Virus record (IMG/VR): IMGVR_UViG_2547132277_000011 | Strand: one strand, 5' to 3' | Length of the DNA: 8,833 nucleotides | DNA from: a virus | Lineage: Duplodnaviria; Heunggongvirae; Uroviricota; Caudoviricetes | Shown here: positions 1-8,833 of the stretch, piece by piece | How the letters are laid out: each line of letters opens with the position of its first letter | Numbering within the stretch: position 1 is the stretch's first letter | Translations under genes and position numbers: made by a program | Notes under the pieces: generated by a model | Seen by the model: only the letters and a program-made list of their open reading frames with translations | What the model was told of the DNA's origin: nothing | Database searches by the model: none

Positions 1-267
1 TTACTCTGCAGGTGAAGTCGGCCACTCAATATCAGGTGCGGTTGATGTATCAACACAGTTCAGCAACACCCGATACTTCTTCCAGGCTTCCAGCAACGAG
101 TTTTCTTCCTCCGTTGCGATCTCCAGATCTACAGCATCCTGAAGTGGCGCAATATGCTCACTGAATTCCTGGATGTAGAACTGTGTGGTGACGGTCTTCC
201 AGCCATTCGGCTCCTGCTGTATCGAAGCATACCAGGCTATTTCAATATCGCTATGCTGCGGCAGCAT
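1..267 (-). CDS. tfa: Tail fibre assembly (Tfa) family protein, short 88-aa form
   Basis: Complete ORF: ATG at 267..265, TAA at 3..1, with AAGGGG about 5 nt upstream of the ATG. The C-terminal ~55 aa ([53 protein letters not shown]) matches the conserved C-terminus of enterobacterial lambdoid Tfa proteins as I recall it (e.g. K-12 TfaR ...[25 protein letters not shown]...). The N-terminal ~35 aa is not recognisable. Very acidic (about 17 D/E versus 4 K/R). Confidence 0.7.
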
Positions 268-275
268 TTAACCCC

Positions 276-304
276 TTGTAATTCATCGCCACAATTGATT
301 TAAT
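276..304 (+). promoter_or_regulatory. Candidate sigma70 promoter for the methyltransferase gene (TTGTAA, 17-bp spacer, TTTAAT)
   Basis: -35-like TTGTAA at 276..281 and -10-like TTTAAT at 299..304 with a 17-bp spacer, 20 to 30 bp upstream of the ATGs at 324/336, in an AT-rich intergenic region. Sequence pattern only. Confidence 0.3.
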
Positions 305-323
305 TCACAAATAAAACTATAAC

Positions 324-992
324 ATGGTGAAATTAATGAAAAAAAACACAGATGATGGGGCTAAAATTTACACACCACTTACCCTAAAGCTTTATGACTG
401 GTGGGTTTTGGGAGTATCAAATCGGCTTGCATGGGGATGTCCTACAAAGGAACACCTTCTTCCACACTTTCTGGAACATTTAGGTAACAACCATCTGGAT
501 ATTGGTGTTGGAACTGGGTTTTACCTTACTCACGTACCTGAGAGTAGTCTGATATCTTTAATGGATTTGAACGAAGCTAGCCTGAACGCGGCATCGACAA
601 GGGCTGGGGAATCAAAAATTAAACATAAAATTAGCCATGATGTTTTTGAACCTTATCCCGCGGCATTACATGGTCAATTTGATTCCATTTCCATGTTTTA
701 CCTTCTTCACTGCCTGCCTGGAAATATATCTACAAAAAGCTGTGTAATACGCAATGCGGCGCAGGCCTTAACTGACGATGGAACTCTATACGGAGCCACA
801 ATTCTTGGTGACGGCGTTGTGCACAATAGCTTCGGTCAAAAACTGATGCGCATTTACAATCAAAAAGGCATCTTTTCAAACACAAAAGATTCCGAAGAAG
901 GCTTAACACATATACTCTCAGAGCATTTCGAGAATGTTAAAACCAAGATTAAAGGTACTGTAGTAATGTTTTCCGCTTCAGGGAAAAAATAG
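324..992 (+). CDS. ybcY: Class I SAM-dependent methyltransferase, UbiE/COQ5-like small-molecule type (not a DNA MTase by motif)
   Basis: 222-aa ORF with glycine-rich SAM-binding motif I (LDIGVGTG) and an upstream YDWWVLGVSNRLAWG segment resembling the UbiE-type motif. No DPPY/NPPY or PC/ENV DNA-MTase motifs seen. Start may be ATG 336 (GGTGA 5 nt upstream) rather than 324. Gene is markedly AT-rich (about 35% GC by hand count of the first 100 nt) compared with the neighbouring phage genes. The symbol is assigned from recalled synteny (a putative SAM MTase, ybcY, lies between tfaD and tfaX in K-12 DLP12), not from verified sequence identity. Confidence 0.85.
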   Translation: MVKLMKKNTDDGAKIYTPLTLKLYDWWVLGVSNRLAWGCPTKEHLLPHFLEHLGNNHLDIGVGTGFYLTHVPESSLISLMDLNEASLNAASTRAGESKIKHKISHDVFEPYPAALHGQFDSISMFYLLHCLPGNISTKSCVIRNAAQALTDDGTLYGATILGDGVVHNSFGQKLMRIYNQKGIFSNTKDSEEGLTHILSEHFENVKTKIKGTVVMFSASGKK

Positions 993-998
993 CATCCA

Positions 999-1033
999 GC
1001 CGCAGCACGTTCTTGCGCACGACGTGCTGCGGC
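999..1033. terminator. 12-bp perfect inverted repeat (GCCGCAGCACGT / ACGTGCTGCGGC) with an 11-nt loop, 7 bp after the MTase stop; possible bidirectional terminator or protein-binding site
   Basis: Arms at 999..1010 and 1022..1033 are exact reverse complements. No clean U-tract on either strand, so terminator function is uncertain. Confidence 0.35.
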
Positions 1034-1046
1034 ATAATCTCAATGA

Positions 1047-1175
1047 TTACTCCCTGACAGGGTTCGTAGGCCACTCAATATCAGGTGCAGTTGATGTACC
1101 AACACGGTTCAGCAACACCCTGCATGCCTTCCATGCCGCCAGCAATGATGTTTCCTCCTTCGTTGCATATACTGC
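1047..1175 (-). pseudogene. tfa: Tail fibre assembly (tfa) gene 3' remnant, C-terminal ~42 codons only
   Basis: Minus-strand frame translates to [42 protein letters not shown], homologous to the C-terminus of the 1..267 gene. Nucleotides about 1069..1170 are roughly 78 to 80% identical to 20..125 by hand alignment. The frame is closed by TGA at 1176..1178, so no N-terminal part remains. Confidence 0.65.
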
Positions 1176-1439
1176 TCACCTTTTTCACCCACGATTAACC
1201 AACAGCCAGATTCGCAGGCACGCCCCACCACGGCATATTCATACGCTTGCCATGTCCGAACATTTCAATCCAGCGATATTATGCCTGGGGTGTTCAAGCG
1301 CAATGAAGTACGTATTGTATCTTCGCGATTTTTTATAGGCTAATTGACGCGCAATTCTGAGCGGGGAGCGCACAATCAAACAGCACAGAATGGATCGCTG
1401 ATATTTATCCTTTTGTCGGTTTATCAAACAACAAGAGAG

Positions 1440-2654
1440 TCAATAGCGGATTGTCCCTACATCCATTTCTGGCGAATCCACTAACCAGAAATTATCTGGC
1501 TTTACAGCCAGAATGATCCAGGCAGTGTTTGTTGTTGATGACCAGGAAGGCAGCACATCGTATGCCGGGTCATCGCAAGAATCACGATAACCGTACTCAT
1601 TAAAAAGTGGAGCCATTGCTGCCACAAGATTCACCGCATTCAGCTCATTACCCAGCTTGCGCTCAAAAAGTGCCACACCTGCCGTTCCTTCCACCCACAC
1701 GCCACGGCTGTGACCACTATAACCATAATCAGGGTGGTACGGTGTGTAACCCGTGGTTTCCCTCGTACCAAATAAAAAACGCCCCATATATTTTCGGCAC
1801 TTAGCCGCTTTCTCAGCATCAATATTGGCAACAAACAATCCGCCCCAGGAAGACTGATCCAGCGCCGCTGCGTTGTCATAGTGGGTTGAATGAACCCCCT
1901 GTCGAAATCGGCCTTCATCTTCCACCCACAGACCTCTGATGATGCTCTTTGCCAGCCTGTCAGCCCGCTCACTGAAACCGTCAAATCCCAGCCGTCCCAT
2001 CAGTTCAAACAAAAACCAGATATCAACGTTATGCTCCAGTGCGCACCATTCGGCGACAAAAGTTTCATCAAAATTGCCGTCCACATAACGCCCCTGCCCC
2101 CCTTTATACAGGCCTTCACGCAGGTCGCCTGGTGTGCTCACCAGAAAAGTATCCAGCCAGGCAATGCCTGCCAATAGCTTTTCTCTGACCCGCGCAGTCT
2201 GAGTACCGTCCGGATACTTCTCCAGATAGAAAGCAAGAGCATAATAAACCCATGCCGCATTGCCCAAGCGGTAATAGGTACGCGGTGACATGGCAGACAG
2301 CCTGTTAACAAAAAACTTTACTCCACCGTTTTCATCAACAAGCGCACACAAGCCCGCAACGTATCTTTCTACAGCCTCATGTCGCTGAACCATCAACGCC
2401 AGTGCTGCCAGCGCCTGGTCATACGTGTAACACCGATCTTTCATCACCCTGATCACTTCGGGGTCTGCGTCCTCCGGCATCCAGTAGCTACGAATGAGCA
2501 GTGGAAACTCCAGCGTTGTGATCCACGCATTATCCTCAATCCGAATAAGACGAAACTGTTTTGCTCCCGTCCAGCAACGTCTGAAATAGAAAGTTCCGTC
2601 ACTATTCAAATTAGCGTCGCCGTTAAAATACTCTCCGGTTGTATAAGCATACAT
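1440..2654 (-). CDS. Hypothetical protein, 404 aa, function unknown (possibly an alpha-helical enzyme-like fold; alternatively the C-terminal domain of a larger deleted gene)
   Basis: Uninterrupted 1215-nt ORF with enterobacterial-looking codon usage; ATG at 2654..2652 with a weak SD. The frame is closed by TGA 12 codons upstream (2693..2691). No signal peptide or Walker motifs seen. Not recognisable to me as any lambdoid morphogenetic protein. Confidence 0.75.
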   Translation of the reverse strand: MYAYTTGEYFNGDANLNSDGTFYFRRCWTGAKQFRLIRIEDNAWITTLEFPLLIRSYWMPEDADPEVIRVMKDRCYTYDQALAALALMVQRHEAVERYVAGLCALVDENGGVKFFVNRLSAMSPRTYYRLGNAAWVYYALAFYLEKYPDGTQTARVREKLLAGIAWLDTFLVSTPGDLREGLYKGGQGRYVDGNFDETFVAEWCALEHNVDIWFLFELMGRLGFDGFSERADRLAKSIIRGLWVEDEGRFRQGVHSTHYDNAAALDQSSWGGLFVANIDAEKAAKCRKYMGRFLFGTRETTGYTPYHPDYGYSGHSRGVWVEGTAGVALFERKLGNELNAVNLVAAMAPLFNEYGYRDSCDDPAYDVLPSWSSTTNTAWIILAVKPDNFWLVDSPEMDVGTIRY

Positions 2655-3235
2655 ATCGACTTTATACTTTTCAGGTTCAGCCTGTTGCTCTCATCACTGG
2701 TCATGGGAATAAAGTCCGGCTCGAGCGCCTCCAGCCAGAAATGAACACCGGCAGAAGGCGTCAGGCTGTTTATGCGCCCGGAAACCATCTGGGCAAACAC
2801 CTCACCATCGCGCAGCCAGGTACGCAGCATCAGACGTTCCAGCATCGGACGGGTAAACTGCCCGGTGACCTCCGGACTGACAGACCATTCACTCCATCGG
2901 GTGCGTATCTCCGCTGCCAGATCACGGGCAATGGCCCCATTGCGTAATACCGGATGTGGCTCGACAATAATCCCGTTTTTCCCCACCACCCGTTCTTCCA
3001 GCTTGTCAAATACACCAATGACCAGATCGTGGTTGTTATCAAGGTAACGGGCCTGCTCACGTAACGACACGGCCCCGTACTGGCTTAACTGATCGGCAGT
3101 TCGGTTCTCCCGTCGGGCTTTGTGTGTCCGCGTCGTTTTTACGGCCTCATAAGCCTGGATCACCGCACGGGAACGCAGCCTTGCCGCTTTCCATCCTGGT
3201 GAAAAAACGCCAATCACATCATCAAGAATTGCCAT
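2606..3235 (-). pseudogene. B: Portal protein gene, N-terminal fragment (about 205 codons of an expected 500 or more); truncated near 2655..2700
   Basis: ORF begins MAILDDVIGVFSPGWKAARL... at ATG 3235..3233, overlapping the gpW stop (TGATG), which is the position of the portal gene in the lambda order Nu1-A-W-B. It stops at 2606 after about 209 codons, the last ~28 of which (SNRLNLKSIKSICMLIQPESILTATLI) look non-portal. The ORF-track start at 3307 is an upstream in-frame artefact inside W. Confidence 0.7.
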
Positions 3236-3453
3236 CAGAACCTCGCCAGCCGGTACCCGGGATGCCCCCGTCGTCGTGTAATCAGAGCCGCAAGGCGGCG
3301 CTCCCACTCCTGCCGCCCCTGCCGGATCTCAGATAAGTTTTCCATGGTCATCTGCTGACCATTAAAAGTGACGGATTTTCCGTCCAGCACCGCCATTTCA
3401 GCTTCCGTATAACGCTGAATCATGGCTTCGATATCATTCTGGTTCATAACCAT
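3235..3453 (-). CDS. W: Head-tail joining / head completion protein gpW-like (72 aa)
   Basis: Small ORF immediately downstream of the large terminase, overlapping it by 10 nt. The C-terminus ...ITRRRGHPGYRLARF resembles lambda gpW ...RRRGPAGFYV. Size and position match lambda W. Confidence 0.85.
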   Translation of the reverse strand: MVMNQNDIEAMIQRYTEAEMAVLDGKSVTFNGQQMTMENLSEIRQGRQEWERRLAALITRRRGHPGYRLARF

Positions 3454-5546
3454 CCTCCAGAAGTCAGCCAGGGGTTAACATCGTCAGTTACTGTTTTCTT
3501 CCGTTTTTGTTTTTTAACAGGCGTGGATACCGGTTCCGGTGAGGATGACGGTTCGGTACTGTCCTGGACACACTCCAGCCAGGTTTCCCGGCTCGCCCAC
3601 TCCGGTGCATCCGGCCAGCGGATCTTTTCGTATCCATGCAGAATGACCAGAGCCTCGGCATACACCATCAGGTCAAAAGCTTCGTTGGCACCGCGACCCG
3701 GCTTACTCCATTTCCCGTCACTGCTCCGCTCTTCATACGTCAGTTCGTCGTAAAACCAGCTCCCCAGCCAGTCAGGGAAATGCACATAGCCTGGACCTGG
3801 CGAGTCACGCCATAACGCGTTATTCACCCGGTCTTTCAGGGCATCCGTCTGAAGAAGCCAGAGCGGCACATCACCTGCGGCCTGCGCCCGGCGGCCCGTT
3901 CGTCCGGTGTTATCAGGGAATGTACGGCTGATCAGTTTTGCGCGCCGGATGCTGTCCCCCTTAAACAGGTAAATACGTTTACCAAGGCCATCACGACGGC
4001 AACGACGCCAGAATTTATAGGCATTATCAGTGACCCCGTCTTCACCGCCGGAGTCCACCGCCATTGCCATCAGTCGCATTTGTTGAGAAGGATCGGAGGC
4101 CAGCGGCCAGCTTTTATGAAAAACATCCGTCAGCAGGACATCCCAGTCTTCCGGATAGCTGGCCGGATCAATTCGCTGGCTCTCCCCGTCGCTGTCACCG
4201 CGCAATGACTGCGTGATGTTGTAACGATCAATAATCCAGCGTTCGCCACGGCTGCCATAGCCCGTTACCTGAACCACAAAACGGCGATGACGTCCCGCCT
4301 GCACATCCACTGTCGCCACAAGGAAATTAACGCCATCCGGCACACTGCGGGAAGGAACTGGCTCTGCCCGCTGCTCAAGCAGTTCACTTTTTCGTTGCTC
4401 CATGCTGGCGCGGGGAAGATAAGGTAATCCCCAGTCGGTATTGATAACCGTCTTGAGTGTTTCTTCACTTCCGGTTGTCTCGTATTCCTGTTCTGCAGTA
4501 AGCAGTTTGTAAACGAGTTGCGAGAGTGTCTGGTAAGCAGCTGCCGGACCCTCCATCCAGAATGACGCAATACGTGAGCGTCGGGGATCACCATAACGAC
4601 TGCCATCCGCATTGATGGATTCACCATCCCGCAACCAGACCCCACGTCCGTTCAGCTCACGTTTTTGTTCAGGCATAATCCGTCCTGAACAGGAAGGACA
4701 CTGAATATAAGCCGCCTCACTTGCCAGCACGGGAGCGGCAATATCACGGAAACCAGCAACCACATCGCCGCAGGGCTGAAAATACTCACCACAGTGTGGA
4801 CAAGGCCAGTACCAGCGACGGCGATCGCCACGGTTATAGAGCGACAGTATCCCCGTGGTTGGTGGAGCCTCATGCGGTGAAGTCCGTCGCCATTTCACAT
4901 CCTTCACATCCCTGCCGGGGGAACTCTCCACAAGCGTCATACCACTGGACATAAATGTTGTGGTACGTTTTGAGGCAAGAGAGAAAGCATCCCCCTCGCC
5001 ATCAATATCTTCCGGAAAACGGTCATAATCCGTCAGCGCGACGCATTTATAATCTGATGAGGACATGATATTGACTGACGGCCAGCCGATTTTCAGGTAG
5101 TTACCAGCAAGGAATGTTCTGTCATAAACGTTGTTGTCATTTTTGTTCGGACTCAGGCGACTGACCACTTCCGGGCTGACGCGAAACGTTCTGGCGAGTC
5201 GTTTTTTGGAGTGTTCGCGGGCTTTTTCCTCCGTCATCTGTATGATCAGCATATCAGCAGGATCGCAAATCACGTTGTAAATCACCCAGCCGTCAATCAG
5301 GCCGATAGTCTTACCGGTTCGTGCCGGGCCAACAAATATCACTGCGTCGTATTCACGCGAGGCCAGGCAGTTCATCGGCTCAATAACATACGGTGCCACC
5401 AGCGGATCCCACGGGACTGAATTCCCGGCCCCCATGGGCACCCGCATATACTGAGCAACGGCATCAGCAACCCGCATTCGTCTCGGTGCGCGAAGGATAT
5501 AACCTGAATCGGTTCGTGCTGCCTTTGCGGTTTCCTGATTCAGCAT
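3444..5546 (-). CDS. A: Terminase large subunit (lambda gpA family), 700 aa, apparently intact
   Basis: Walker A-like AVIFVGPARTGKT near the N-terminus; WYWPCPHCGEYFQ resembles lambda gpA ...ACPHCGEEQYL; C-terminal ...VYAEALVILHGYEKIRW resembles lambda ...CFVYALAALRISISRW. ATG 5546..5544 overlaps the Nu1-like stop (TAATG). Confidence 0.95.
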   Translation of the reverse strand: MLNQETAKAARTDSGYILRAPRRMRVADAVAQYMRVPMGAGNSVPWDPLVAPYVIEPMNCLASREYDAVIFVGPARTGKTIGLIDGWVIYNVICDPADMLIIQMTEEKAREHSKKRLARTFRVSPEVVSRLSPNKNDNNVYDRTFLAGNYLKIGWPSVNIMSSSDYKCVALTDYDRFPEDIDGEGDAFSLASKRTTTFMSSGMTLVESSPGRDVKDVKWRRTSPHEAPPTTGILSLYNRGDRRRWYWPCPHCGEYFQPCGDVVAGFRDIAAPVLASEAAYIQCPSCSGRIMPEQKRELNGRGVWLRDGESINADGSRYGDPRRSRIASFWMEGPAAAYQTLSQLVYKLLTAEQEYETTGSEETLKTVINTDWGLPYLPRASMEQRKSELLEQRAEPVPSRSVPDGVNFLVATVDVQAGRHRRFVVQVTGYGSRGERWIIDRYNITQSLRGDSDGESQRIDPASYPEDWDVLLTDVFHKSWPLASDPSQQMRLMAMAVDSGGEDGVTDNAYKFWRRCRRDGLGKRIYLFKGDSIRRAKLISRTFPDNTGRTGRRAQAAGDVPLWLLQTDALKDRVNNALWRDSPGPGYVHFPDWLGSWFYDELTYEERSSDGKWSKPGRGANEAFDLMVYAEALVILHGYEKIRWPDAPEWASRETWLECVQDSTEPSSSPEPVSTPVKKQKRKKTVTDDVNPWLTSGGWL

Positions 5547-6040
5547 TACTCCTCCCGCTGTAATTCCTCCTCATCATCCGCACCTGCTTCGGTCACCCGC
5601 AGGGCTATCTGATCGCGCAGATCATCAATAATGGACTGAACACGGCTCACAGCGGCAGGCTGCAGACCGCAGTCACGTTCAAGAATATCCGGTAATGTCT
5701 CCAGCACCTGCACGACCGCTTTTGCCCAGATGGCAAACTCTCGTCTGACATCACTGGCCGGAATGAGTTGTGCCGTTTCCTGTTCGAACTTAAGACGCTC
5801 ACGTTCAGACTGATACCAGGCTTTGCGCTCATGCGCGTCCATTTCGCCTTCTGCAACCGGCGGTGGTAATGCCAGAAATGCCGACACAATATCAACCACC
5901 CGATAAAGCTTGAGGTTGCTTTCATGCCCCCCTGCAACGGGTAGATTTTGCAGCCTTGCCGCAGCAGTCTGGCGATGTACACCTGACAGTGCCGCCAGTT
6001 GACTGATATTCAGCGTCAGATTTTTTAACTCTCGATCCAT
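5546..6040 (-). CDS. Nu1: Terminase small subunit (lambda Nu1-like), 164 aa
   Basis: N-terminal helix-turn-helix-like segment (LNISQLAALSGVHRQTAAARLQ) analogous to the lambda Nu1 DNA-binding N-terminus. GGAG SD 5 nt upstream of ATG 6040. Located about 175 bp downstream of the cosN-like sequence, as in lambda. Confidence 0.85.
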   Translation of the reverse strand: MDRELKNLTLNISQLAALSGVHRQTAAARLQNLPVAGGHESNLKLYRVVDIVSAFLALPPPVAEGEMDAHERKAWYQSERERLKFEQETAQLIPASDVRREFAIWAKAVVQVLETLPDILERDCGLQPAAVSRVQSIIDDLRDQIALRVTEAGADDEEELQREE

Positions 6041-6145
6041 ACCCGCTCCAGAATGTTTTAAACATGCATCTTGCGAACAACTTTAGGCAAACGGTGTTAG
6101 TGATGAACAAAAAACAATCAAAATCGACACCGCAAAAATAAAATC

Positions 6146-6169
6146 ACTGTAATATCAATACATTACAGT
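6146..6169. promoter_or_regulatory. Candidate IHF site (WATCAANNNNTTR match TATCAAtacaTTA at 6153..6165) centred in an 8-bp inverted repeat (ACTGTAAT / ATTACAGT); cosB-like
   Basis: Exact match to the IHF consensus, lying between the cosN-like sequence and the Nu1 start where lambda cosB carries IHF site I1. Arms 6146..6153 and 6162..6169 are reverse complements. Confidence 0.35.
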
Positions 6170-6198
6170 AGTGGTGATGACGAATGAAATTTCAAAAA

Positions 6199-6240
6199 CT
6201 AGCCTTTTTCCGCGACGCTCCCGCCCCGTGGCAGGCCACC
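6199..6240 (-). other. cos site: cosN-like cohesive-end region (predicted 12-nt end GGGCGGGAGCGT on the minus strand = plus 6215..6226)
   Basis: Minus strand reads GGGCGGGAGCGTCGCGGAAAAAGGCTAGTTTTTGAAATTTCATTCGTCAT, closely paralleling the lambda left end as I recall it (GGGCGGCGACCTCGCGGGTTTTCGCTATTTATGAAAATTTTCC...TTCGTCAT). The distance to the Nu1 start is similar to lambda. Confidence 0.55.
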
Positions 6241-6452
6241 CCACCGGAAGGACCCGCCAAAATGAGAGTGATTATCACCATTGCTGATGAATAAATTGAT
6301 GAAAATCATTGAAACGCCTTTCAGCAAGATAACGGCGACGGTCGTTGTTGAACTCCGTAACTCTGCTACTAAGGTTAAAAGCATGGCCATCTTTTGCCAC
6401 CGGCAAATCTTCAATGGATTTCCCCTGCCGGTTTTTTATTCCTCACATTATC

Positions 6453-6476
6453 GCAGCCCCTCAGTGAAGGGCTGCT
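6453..6476. other. 9-bp stem / 6-nt loop hairpin (GCAGCCCCT-cagtga-AGGGGCTGC) just downstream of the stop of the 6490..6855 ORF
   Basis: Perfect inverted repeat. No adjacent U-tract on either strand, so it is not called a canonical intrinsic terminator. Confidence 0.3.
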
Positions 6477-6489
6477 GTAATGCCTGCTG

Positions 6490-6855
6490 TTACTCAGTAA
6501 CGACCGCGCCTTCCGGTAATTTCATACCGGCAAATACCGGCAGCCCGGGGATCGTTATCTGCAGCTGGTTAGCCAGGGAGTTAATCTCAGCGACCAACAC
6601 TGGCTTCGTATAGCGCCATGCCGCCAGCCCTTGTCCACAGAAGCTCGCCATATCTTTTTTCTGATCAAACTCATGACACTTCATATTGAGCTGCGCACTT
6701 AAGCTGTTGCGATGCTGAAGTTCTCCGGTGAAGTAGTCATCCAGGACTTTATAGGCTGCATATTTAAATCCGGGGTTTAGCCATGCTGCATAATCATAAG
6801 CAACAAACTTCCCGCCATATGTTCCACCGTGTACACCGCGCTCAGTAAAAACCAC
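6490..6855 (-). CDS. Hypothetical protein; the N-terminal part resembles the C-terminal half of a KilA-N domain; possibly an N-terminally truncated remnant
   Basis: GVHGGTYGGKFVAYDYAAWLNPGFKYAAYKVL fits the KilA-N-type pattern G-T-W/Y...A...A-WL-S/N-P-x-F as I recall it. The only start candidate is GTG 6855 with a weak SD; the first ATG is internal. The frame runs directly in phase from the Rz stop (TAG 6879..6877). Confidence 0.4.
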   Translation of the reverse strand: MVFTERGVHGGTYGGKFVAYDYAAWLNPGFKYAAYKVLDDYFTGELQHRNSLSAQLNMKCHEFDQKKDMASFCGQGLAAWRYTKPVLVAEINSLANQLQITIPGLPVFAGMKLPEGAVVTE

Positions 6856-6876
6856 AGATTCGTGTTTTTTCTCCAG

Positions 6877-7344
6877 CTACTTAATGCGCTGGGTGCGGAT
6901 ATATTCCTGCGCCCCTTCCAGTTGCTTCTGCATCGTCATCAACCGTTCTCTGAGGGTGAAATAATCCCGTTCAGCGGTGTCTGCCAGTCGGGGGCTGGTT
7001 GCATTATCCATGCTGGTGGGTCCGGTGGCTTCACGCACGGCTGCGGAGCAACTGGCATTGACCCGCAGGCGCTTACGACCAGCGGCAACATCAGCGCGCA
7101 GAGTTTCATTTTCAGTTTTCGCATCGGCTAACTCCTTCGTGTATTTTGCATCGATCGCAGCAACATCACGCTGACGCTGCTGCATGTCAGCGATGGTGGC
7201 GGTCGCCTGCTTCAGCTCACTGACTTTTTTATCACGCTGTTCTTTGTAGGCGATGGCGTTATCACGGTAATGATTCAGCCCCAGACTAAGCACAACACAG
7301 GCCACCAGCAGCATAGCAATCACTACATACAGAACACGGTTCAT
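6877..7344 (-). CDS. Rz: Rz i-spanin (inner-membrane spanin), 155 aa from ATG 7344
   Basis: MNRVLYVVIAMLLVACVVLSLGLNHYRDNAIAYKEQRDK...DAKYTKELADAK...SPRLADTAERDYFTLRERL.TMQKQLEG matches lambda Rz near-colinearly. The ORF-track start at 7428 is an upstream GTG; I prefer ATG 7344, which aligns with the lambda Rz N-terminus. Confidence 0.9.
   Translation of the reverse strand: MNRVLYVVIAMLLVACVVLSLGLNHYRDNAIAYKEQRDKKVSELKQATATIADMQQRQRDVAAIDAKYTKELADAKTENETLRADVAAGRKRLRVNASCSAAVREATGPTSMDNATSPRLADTAERDYFTLRERLMTMQKQLEGAQEYIRTQRIK
6939..7124 (-). CDS. Rz1: Rz1 o-spanin (outer-membrane lipoprotein), 61 aa, embedded out of frame within Rz
   Basis: MRKLKMKLCALMLPLVVSACGS...CVKPPDPPAWIMQPAPDWQTPLNGIISPSENG matches lambda Rz1 (MLKLKMMLCVMMLPLVVVGC...PAWIMQPPPDWQTPLNGIISPSERG). 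Lipobox LVVSAC and a proline-rich body are present. It lies wholly inside Rz in another frame, as in lambda. Confidence 0.9.
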   Translation of the reverse strand: MRKLKMKLCALMLPLVVSACGSMPVAPQPCVKPPDPPAWIMQPAPDWQTPLNGIISPSENG

Positions 7345-7612
7345 ATCACCACCAACGGATTGCCCAGACCAGAACAGCGACCGCCACAAGGCGAATTGCA
7401 AAGGCCGTTGCCCGAATAAAATCAGCACTCATCTGTTTAAATAAATTGTTGTGTATGCAACCAGTGCAGTACAAATAATCCATGCAACTGGCGTCAGTAT
7501 ATGTCTGATGCCCCGGCATACCGCGATGATTTTTGCGGCATCGTCAGCACCCTGCGAAGTTGTTTCTGCTTTTATCATCAGTTGCCATGTCCCTCATGAC
7601 ACCCATCACCAC

Positions 7613-7895
7613 TCACGATTTCAGAGCAACAATCAATTTTGCCAGCCCATACAGCATCGGAGACACGGCGATGCCAACCGCCACCCACTTAATGGCAAAA
7701 GCCACCGCCCGGATAAGGCAGAGATTCGCCGTATTTTCTGTCTTATCTACAAACATATGCTATCGCTGCAACCGCAAAACCAATTGCCCCGATCATTGCC
7801 GATAATGCAAGAATAATTCCGGCAATATTTGCTGCTTTAGGTGTCATACTGCACCCTATACTCAGAAAGGTTTTATTGTTATCCTTTACCTGCAT
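7613..7895 (-). pseudogene. S-like class I holin remnant, apparently frameshifted into two short ORFs (7743..7895 and 7613..7756)
   Basis: Hand translation gives MQVKDNNKTFLSIGCSMTPKAANIAGIILALSAMIGAIGFAVAAIAYVCR* and, in a second frame, MFVDKTENTANLCLIRAVAFAIKWVAVGIAVSPMLYGLAKLIVALKS*. These resemble lambda S TMD1 ([27 protein letters not shown]) and the following FTKTVIDATMCAIIAWFIRD region. The frame break near 7745..7760 is at the position corresponding to lambda RGRYNGGAF. Both pieces are below the ORF-track size cutoff. Confidence 0.35.
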
Positions 7896-7927
7896 GAATT
7901 ATATCCATGTCTGATTTGTCAAAATGC

Positions 7928-7956
7928 AACCCCGGACTGTTCCCCCAGCCGGGGTT
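7928..7956 (-). terminator. Rho-independent terminator-like hairpin (8-bp stem AACCCCGG/CCGGGGTT, 13-nt loop) followed on the minus strand by GCAUUUUG; analogous in position to lambda tR' upstream of S
   Basis: Perfect 8-bp GC-rich stem at 7928..7935 and 7949..7956 with a U-run immediately 3' on the minus strand. A T-run also follows on the plus strand, so it could act bidirectionally. It sits directly upstream of the holin-like remnant. Confidence 0.5.
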
Positions 7957-8149
7957 TTACTTTTATTCACTTACCTTTTGCCAGTTTGCAGGATTTCGTG
8001 TTATCCGCTCGCGGGAGCACACGCCATTTTTCAGCAAAATATTCTGCTAGCTGTCGATACCCCAGCACACCAGTGCCGCTTCCTGGTCACGGCGAATAAC
8101 CTGTCCATAGCAGTTATTTGAACGTATGCGGCAATCGCGTCCACCATCT

Positions 8150-8833
<684 letters not shown>

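Follow-up and report, generated by a model that had tools for sequence, protein, structure and literature searches.

A deletion remnant of a lambdoid side tail fibre gene encoding a predicted (α/α)6 barrel in a degraded ETEC prophage

The window analysed here, a stretch of 8,833 bp, covers the end nearest potB of a degraded lambdoid prophage; the chromosomes of ETEC B2C and TW10598 are 100% identical to it, and 9 further complete genomes show 100% identity over window positions 1-8150. RefSeq annotates partial tfa genes, a class I SAM methyltransferase, a partial 'phage tail protein', a partial portal, an intact large terminase, a DUF1441 protein and lysis genes, with an IS21-family element disrupting the lysozyme gene. 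This element is ISEc62 (istA/istB), which covers window positions 8207-8833 and runs beyond them (L001:16053-18709); its insertion in the prophage lysozyme gene is present in B2C and TW10598 and absent from the nine genomes that match 1-8150 only, and MB06101 also carries ISEc62 in the lysis region, at another position. Four prophage tRNA genes (Ile, Lys, Thr, Gly) lie upstream of the lysis cassette (L001:19592-19901), and the Q antiterminator region of B2C is broken up, with a 111-nt 'antiterminator' fragment that inserted ORFs separate from a Q-family gene. The features at the locus, in window coordinates, are the following:

1..1166, no strand assigned: prophage end, adjoining potB and common to genomes with an intact fibre
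1-174, minus strand: tfa fragment
324-992, plus strand: class I SAM methyltransferase
1047-1166, minus strand: tfa fragment
1215..1439, minus strand: degraded PHROG_1443-type gene region, 3' of the fibre stop (colinear with the intact phage; PHROG hits; identity with locus L006)
1440..2680, minus strand: whole fibre-derived DNA, parent codons 198-609 plus stop (PGAP pseudogene 'phage tail protein, missing N-terminus', 1440-2678)
1440..2654, minus strand: 404-aa ORF with ATG start, codons 206-609 of a 609-aa lambda-Stf-type side tail fibre gene
1497..2462, minus strand: complete (α/α)6 six-hairpin barrel, by prediction, ORF residues ~65-386
2508..2654, minus strand: surviving half of a β-rich neck, ORF residues 1-49 (pLDDT 38-55 in the 404-aa model)
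2606..3307, minus strand: portal-frame ORF that continues into fibre DNA in a frame other than that of the fibre ORF, with its stop at 2606
2675..3307, minus strand: lambda-family portal gene remnant, N-terminal ~210 codons (PF05136 profile 3-149 of 354; PGAP 'phage portal protein, missing C-terminus')
2676..2680, minus strand: deletion junction with 5-bp microhomology CTGAA (three-way alignment of intact portal, window and intact fibre)

The 404-aa ORF lies directly after the broken-off portal gene and ahead of a tfa remnant, as an earlier, sequence-only reading of this DNA had it. That reading could place the ORF in no family, and for Pfam (E<=1), NCBIfam and PADLOC scans of the 404 residues, none of which returns a match, this stands; it does not stand for PHROGs, where the full-length parent falls into tail-fibre families over the region covered by the ORF (phrog_13714, E 2e-268). 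The identity of the ORF can be read directly from its matches. In phage genomes, tblastn finds a 99% identical full-length match within the 609-aa 'tail protein' (gene 80) of phiSTEC1575-Stx2k, an Stx2k-converting phage; its gene order runs from the tape measure through M/L/K/I-type tip genes, the host-specificity protein J and Lom to the fibre, a 99-aa ORF, DinI and the integrase, and the fibre thus occupies the slot of lambda stf, the side tail fibre gene. The protein database records the exact 404-aa sequence as 'phage tail protein, partial', and holds 608-aa proteins (P0002-P0005) that are 100% identical to it over all 404 residues and carry PF08400 at their N-termini. At the level of DNA, the ORF is 100% identical to the intact ORF of ETEC strain 214-4, where the parent gene follows J and lom, as it does in phiSTEC1575-Stx2k, and occupies the chromosomal site of the window. 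A comparison of genomic neighbourhoods finds the ORF recurring as the C-terminus of stf-type genes in both, and its start codon, ATG at 2654, corresponds to Met206 within the parent fibre.

Residues 3-93 of the parent match the PDB chain 9e7m (E 5e-49), which is the collar domain gpStfN of the Ur-lambda side fibre; this domain contacts gpV and gpM, and a flexible linker ties it to a trimeric stalk (PMC12617516). The PF08400 collar is present in the intact parent and absent from the window ORF, fibre codons 1-197 being deleted; the window copy is thus a fragment of a member of the PF08400 fibre family, not a functional member. Almost certainly the ORF is a pseudogene, the 5'-truncated remainder of a lambdoid side tail fibre in the stf position, left by a recent deletion of ~16.7 kb in a case of ordinary gene decay; RefSeq already flags the feature as a pseudogene. 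For a frame of 404 codons to be open by chance has a probability of (61/64)^404, or ~4e-9 per start; the frame is open so far beyond chance because it derives, very recently, from a functional gene. Synonymous codon differences from phiSTEC1575 number 3 and non-synonymous ones 4, a basis too small for interpreting a dN/dS-style comparison.

The junction itself is directly visible in the alignment. The pentamer CTGAA is embedded in the portal gene as ..CAGG CTGAA TCAGGG and in the fibre gene as ..ATTT CTGAA CCAGAAAAG; the match to the intact portal starts at 2676, with portal-derived DNA above the crossover and fibre-derived DNA from codon Glu198 onward below it, the two being joined out of frame. 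The frame of the ORF is shut exactly 12 codons 5' of its ATG, as had been noticed (..SHDQ, two stops, EQQAEPEKYKVDM..), and both of these stops lie within the portal-derived DNA. What the sequence-only reading had entered as a caveat, namely that the ORF could be the distal ~400 residues of a larger side tail fibre fused here by deletion, is what the alignment gives: codons 206-609 of a 609-aa fibre behind a CTGAA junction. Exactly this junction occurs in 11 of 5,426 complete E. coli genomes, all of them 100% identical, which fits one event that was clonally inherited.

The undeleted state is closely modelled by 214-4: its prophage occupies the same site at potB, is accompanied by the same methyltransferase and tfa fragments and is nearly intact, its genes running in the order terminase, portal, protease/capsid, tail genes, tape measure, L, K, I, J, lom and a fibre frame open over 609 codons. 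Window positions 1966-2680 equal positions 1-715 of this locus (L010) at 100% identity, whereas positions 2690-8150 match it at 96.6% identity 16.7 kb further on; the flanks of the junction map to positions 715 and ~17,430 of 214-4. The gap of ~16.7 kb, which is the head and tail module that the earlier reading had found missing, indicates that a single deletion took the whole morphogenetic module together with fibre codons 1-197. As a literal ancestor 214-4 is rejected, since the identity seen at the fibre end does not extend to the portal-to-lysis region. The deletion, one illegitimate-recombination event at the 5-bp microhomology, runs from mid-portal to fibre codon 197; it removed the genes for capsid, tail tube, tape measure, tip, J and lom and, from the fibre, the collar, the stalk and half of the neck. 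The leftover frame is open solely because the deletion is recent; the remnant is no longer able to attach to a virion, and the prophage itself can make none. In 214-4 (L009:3001-4830) RefSeq annotates only the N-terminal 417 nt of the open fibre frame, as 'missing C-terminus', and leaves the remainder without a feature; many other genomes likewise have no annotated feature under the fibre match.

On its 3' side the fibre stop is followed by a 62-aa ORF (1239-1427, minus strand) with a TTG start, a frameshifted and diverged copy of a 99-aa PHROG_1443 protein. The intact gene, of a family without assigned function, directly follows the fibre in phiSTEC1575-Stx2k (L003:10228-10527) and may encode a fibre-specific chaperone that substitutes for tfa; the degraded 62-aa form is found too in locus L006, where the fibre is intact. 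L006:5010-11827 (GCA_049958015.1) lies at the same potB site and shows the intact lambda-Stf-type fibre (PF08400) directly after a tail module of Baseplate_J, a 461-aa fibre and Caudo_TAP, more suggestive of a myovirus than of a lambdoid phage; the baseplate cluster contains an inserted HSDR_N-domain gene. The prophage may be a hybrid, or its arrangement may have arisen through replacement, with recombination at the fibre/tfa boundary.

The sequence-only reading had regarded the ORF as an undescribed cargo gene, possibly partnered by the divergently placed methyltransferase. The methyltransferase (WP_000239880.1) is of low GC (~41-43%) and stands between two separate C-terminal tfa fragments; it resembles an accessory ('moron') gene that recombination within tfa has brought in, and the ORF lies near it at the prophage end, a typical place for such genes, as would suit a reading in which the two act together as an accessory or anti-phage system. 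They are, however, separated by a tfa fragment and the degraded small ORF, and their arrangement is not particular to the truncated gene: window positions 1-1500, which span the 3' end of the fibre, the small ORF, the tfa fragment, the methyltransferase and the second tfa fragment, differ from L006 by 3 mismatches, and 214-4 and TW10690 show the same layout of the prophage end. Since the methyltransferase adjoins an intact virion-type fibre in 214-4 and L006, the adjacency is older than the truncation, and in phiSTEC1575 the fibre is present without the methyltransferase. PADLOC yields 0 families for the ORF and, for the methyltransferase, only a mad2 match of 14 bits (E 0.004); the ORF shows neither a match to a defence model nor a conserved partnership with the methyltransferase, and from the sequence no functional pairing between them is seen. 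A joint system is therefore wholly improbable, and the notion of a cargo gene is refuted by the full-length, high-identity match to a tail-fibre C-terminus (99% in phiSTEC1575, 100% in the 608-aa proteins), a finding which the sequence-only reading had itself named as contrary to it.

The domain that survives in the remnant is complete by prediction. The AlphaFold model of the 404 residues (pTM 0.81, with 152 residues at pLDDT >=90) has eleven helices in alternating pairs, and the predicted structure has the twelve-helix α/α toroid fold of the six-hairpin glycosidase-like superfamily. Among the top 50 Foldseek matches in the PDB there are only six-hairpin carbohydrate-active enzymes, at a probability of 1.0, including GH94 cellobiose/chitobiose/lactose phosphorylases, the MmpH endo-mannosidase, GH76 mannanases, GH78 rhamnosidases, GH63, GH100 and AGE-family epimerases; the best structural match in BFVD is an unnamed viral protein (E 4e-14). 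The model thus bears out the earlier guess of an α-helical toroid resembling hydrolases or epimerases. Sequence and profile searches of the barrel against the PDB give no match, and no match at curated thresholds to GH15, GH63/MGH1-like, GH94, GH76, GH88 or GH37 is found by Pfam or by PDB profile search. The sub-threshold Pfam matches of family members are all to six-hairpin hydrolases (MGH1-like/GH63, GH94, GH88, Trehalase/GH37), the best of them at E 0.001 with 16 bits against a cut-off of 27.

Residue conservation was assessed over 131 relatives of <45% identity and confirmed on a MAFFT alignment. Near-invariant are Y78, D79, R129, G131, E207, H208, N209, D211, W243, D260, D266, W270, W320, E322 and W379; the acidic residues D79, E207, D211, D260, D266 and E322 are 92-99% conserved in these distant relatives. 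Most of the near-invariant residues are located at or next to the N-terminal ends of the alternate helices 77-89, 130-146, 206-221, 265-276, 321-333 and 374-384. In glucoamylase-type (α/α)6 enzymes, the catalytic funnel is formed at the N-terminal ends of alternate helices.

With the barrel and every conserved residue intact, the question arises whether the host has kept the ORF as a standalone enzyme, translated from the ATG at 2654, whose free six-hairpin glycosidase would serve to remodel its own glycans or matrix, or to block superinfection. The absence of any amino-acid change relative to some intact alleles is, taken alone, compatible with selection for retention, and family members of standalone size occur. 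Decay of the same prophage has furthermore proceeded independently in B4103-1 (L002:4440-6706) and MB06101 (L007:2940-5206), where the fibre C-terminus is kept as well; there, terminase is fused to portal and ClpP to gpU, and the N-terminus of the tape measure is joined near fibre codon ~120-135, giving in MB06101 a 476-aa ORF that PGAP treats as a real gene ('hypothetical protein', WP_001595010.1). This path cannot precede the state of the window, since B4103-1 is without the terminase C-terminus and the portal N-terminus, both retained in the window; B4103-1 is thus rejected as its ancestor. Two independent truncations that retain the C-terminus argue weakly for exaptation; the retention is explained most simply by the position of the fibre 3' end at the prophage edge, where deletions would be unable to extend into the methyltransferase and potB. 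In the sister strain TW10690 (L008:3001-4829), moreover, a 1-bp deletion at fibre codon 390 of the same locus frameshifts the gene inside the barrel (PGAP names the C-terminal 214 residues 'glucosidase family protein'), which argues against selection to keep the domain in lysogens; the junction of the window, for its part, is restricted to the 11 clonal genomes.

Signals for expression point the same way. A promoter scan of window positions 900-3500 finds no σ70-like promoter on either strand, and terminator-like sites do not exceed shuffle expectation; the Shine-Dalgarno had been called weak, and in the sequence 5' of the ATG, AAAAGTATAAAGTCGAT, there is indeed no GGAG-type ribosome-binding site. 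The out-of-frame portal ORF overlaps the fibre ORF and ends 46 nt inside it, and by inspection the N-terminus of the ORF, MYAYTTGEYFNGD.., shows no obvious signal peptide. In the full-length AlphaFold model of the parent (pLDDT 81, pTM 0.71), a β-sandwich collar (1-77) is followed by a low-confidence linker, a long helix (101-139), a β-rich neck (~146-253) and the barrel (~269-590). The breakpoint at codon 197/198 falls within the neck, so that the deletion cuts through a folded unit, whose pLDDT of 71-96 (in blocks of 10 residues) drops to 38-55 in the remnant; the exchangeable C-terminal module begins not at Met206 but at parent residue ~147, as judged from conservation among homologues with unrelated N-termini. 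The remnant is therefore probably neither expressed nor functional, and its exaptation as a standalone enzyme is very unlikely. A more specific form of the idea, in which the stranded barrel is not inert and read-through transcription with a start at Met206 yields a free six-hairpin glycosidase co-opted by the ETEC host, which might for instance trim its own surface polysaccharide and thus keep out the phages using it, is a shade less likely again; were it true, the two decay paths that keep the fibre 3' end would reflect selection.

The module from which the remnant derives is widespread. An exhaustive HMMER search collects 485 cluster representatives (at 50% identity), 338 of them at E <=1e-10, which range from standalone proteins of ~400 residues, whose existence implies that a free barrel can in principle fold, to proteins of up to 5,243 residues. 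The module, consistently tail-associated, follows the anchors PF08400, PF12571 (tail-collar fibre), PF18668 (tail spike N-terminal), PF03406 and PF25613, and elsewhere a C-terminal spike domain like that of T4 gp5 or a nozzle protein of T7 type; it is exchanged as a distal domain among virion anchors, in the manner of a receptor-binding depolymerase module, with conservation setting in at ~147 whatever the anchor. Distant copies are present in Microbacterium phages, where their annotation is minor tail protein, as well as in Thermus phage phiYS40 and an E. coli jumbo phage. A 494-aa homologue in Escherichia phage ph0011, an Asteriusvirus jumbo phage (L004:4746-6230), is 59% identical over the whole 404 residues; its neighbours are numerous small hypothetical genes, with a DNA methyltransferase and an RnlA-type RNA ligase nearby, and do not form an obvious tail module.

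The parent resembles the lambda (Ur-lambda) Stf in its slot after J and lom, in its collar (9e7m, PF08400) and in the linker and long helix that follow. At 609 residues it is much shorter than Stf, which has a length of about 770 residues; it is not followed by an intact tfa chaperone gene, and the copy in the window is without the whole of the Stf-like N-terminus. The distal parts differ as well, that of Stf being a gp37-like intertwined fibre with an OmpC-binding tip (PMC12617516), whereas the parent has the β-rich neck and the (α/α)6 barrel. In the intact fibre, trimers would dock on the tail tip through the collar (residues 1-~93), and the linker with the long helix ~101-139, presumed to form a trimeric stalk, would present three barrels; each of these would bind, and probably cleave, the surface polysaccharide of the host, speeding adsorption before J engages its receptor. 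Such a role would be analogous to that of lambda Stf (PMC12617516), but with an enzymatic tip.

Whether the tip is enzymatic bears on an alternative in which the barrel of the parent fibre is a non-catalytic, lectin-like receptor-binding domain and no depolymerase. The tip of lambda Stf is a pure OmpC binder (PMC12617516), the barrel belongs at the sequence level to no GH family, and its structural neighbours also include non-hydrolytic enzymes, namely epimerases, isomerases and terpene cyclases. Yet D79, E207, H208, D211, D260, D266 and E322 as well as five tryptophans are near-invariant in the 131 relatives, from very different hosts, and such conservation fits an active site better than a variable binding surface; the faint Pfam matches, too, are all to hydrolases. 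A lectin is accordingly a credible but rather unlikely reading, and the barrel of the intact fibre would be a glycan-recognising, probably glycan-cleaving tip of the depolymerase type, acting on host surface polysaccharide during adsorption. That the intact family constitutes an uncurated glycoside-hydrolase family, carried at the tail-fibre tip in phages of Proteobacteria, Actinobacteria and Thermus, is a proposal with even prospects.

Compared with known six-hairpin enzymes (the GH15-like dextran dextrinase 9ju0, MmpH 7qsj, GH94, GH76, GH63 and AGE epimerases), the barrel shares only 6-14% identity and differs in being carried on a virion fibre; the structural scores form a flat plateau, so that no single GH family is closest. 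It is a further member of the recognised but rare α/α-toroid class of predicted phage depolymerases, which are likewise carbohydrate-enzyme-like toroids located distally on receptor-binding proteins, with exchangeable anchors (DepoScope; a Klebsiella prophage survey). This class is defined computationally. In DepoScope, α/α-toroids make up 11 of 984 fold hits (1.1%) and were left out of model training for having too few examples (PMC11326577); the α/α-toroid reference entries examined in its fold table are PL8 lyases. The Klebsiella prophage survey counts 29 among several thousand, <1% (PMC12491483). Literature searches turned up no experimentally characterised fibre of the family of the barrel, and no relevant experimental work on an α/α-toroid or six-hairpin tail fibre of E. 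coli prophages or on phiSTEC1575-Stx2k.

As a locus, the window is typical of the cryptic-prophage remnants of E. coli, with which it shares a degraded lambdoid prophage, partial portal, lysozyme, Q and tfa genes together with an IS insertion, and a truncated structural gene left open by a recent microhomology-mediated deletion; its sole oddity is the complete enzyme-like domain encoded by the stranded piece. The locus thus matters little in itself, being a recent deletion remnant in a cryptic ETEC prophage, not to be counted among new cargo or defence genes. More useful is the preserved domain: it stands for a broad family of 485 clusters, without a Pfam or NCBIfam model of its own and with no solved structure by sequence search, which shows an enzyme-like residue pattern and has been shuffled among many kinds of phage tail anchor. 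Since α/α-toroid tips make up ~1% of predicted phage depolymerases and lie outside the training of current predictors, a characterised representative would improve the annotation of host range and of depolymerases, and might define a new glycoside hydrolase family.
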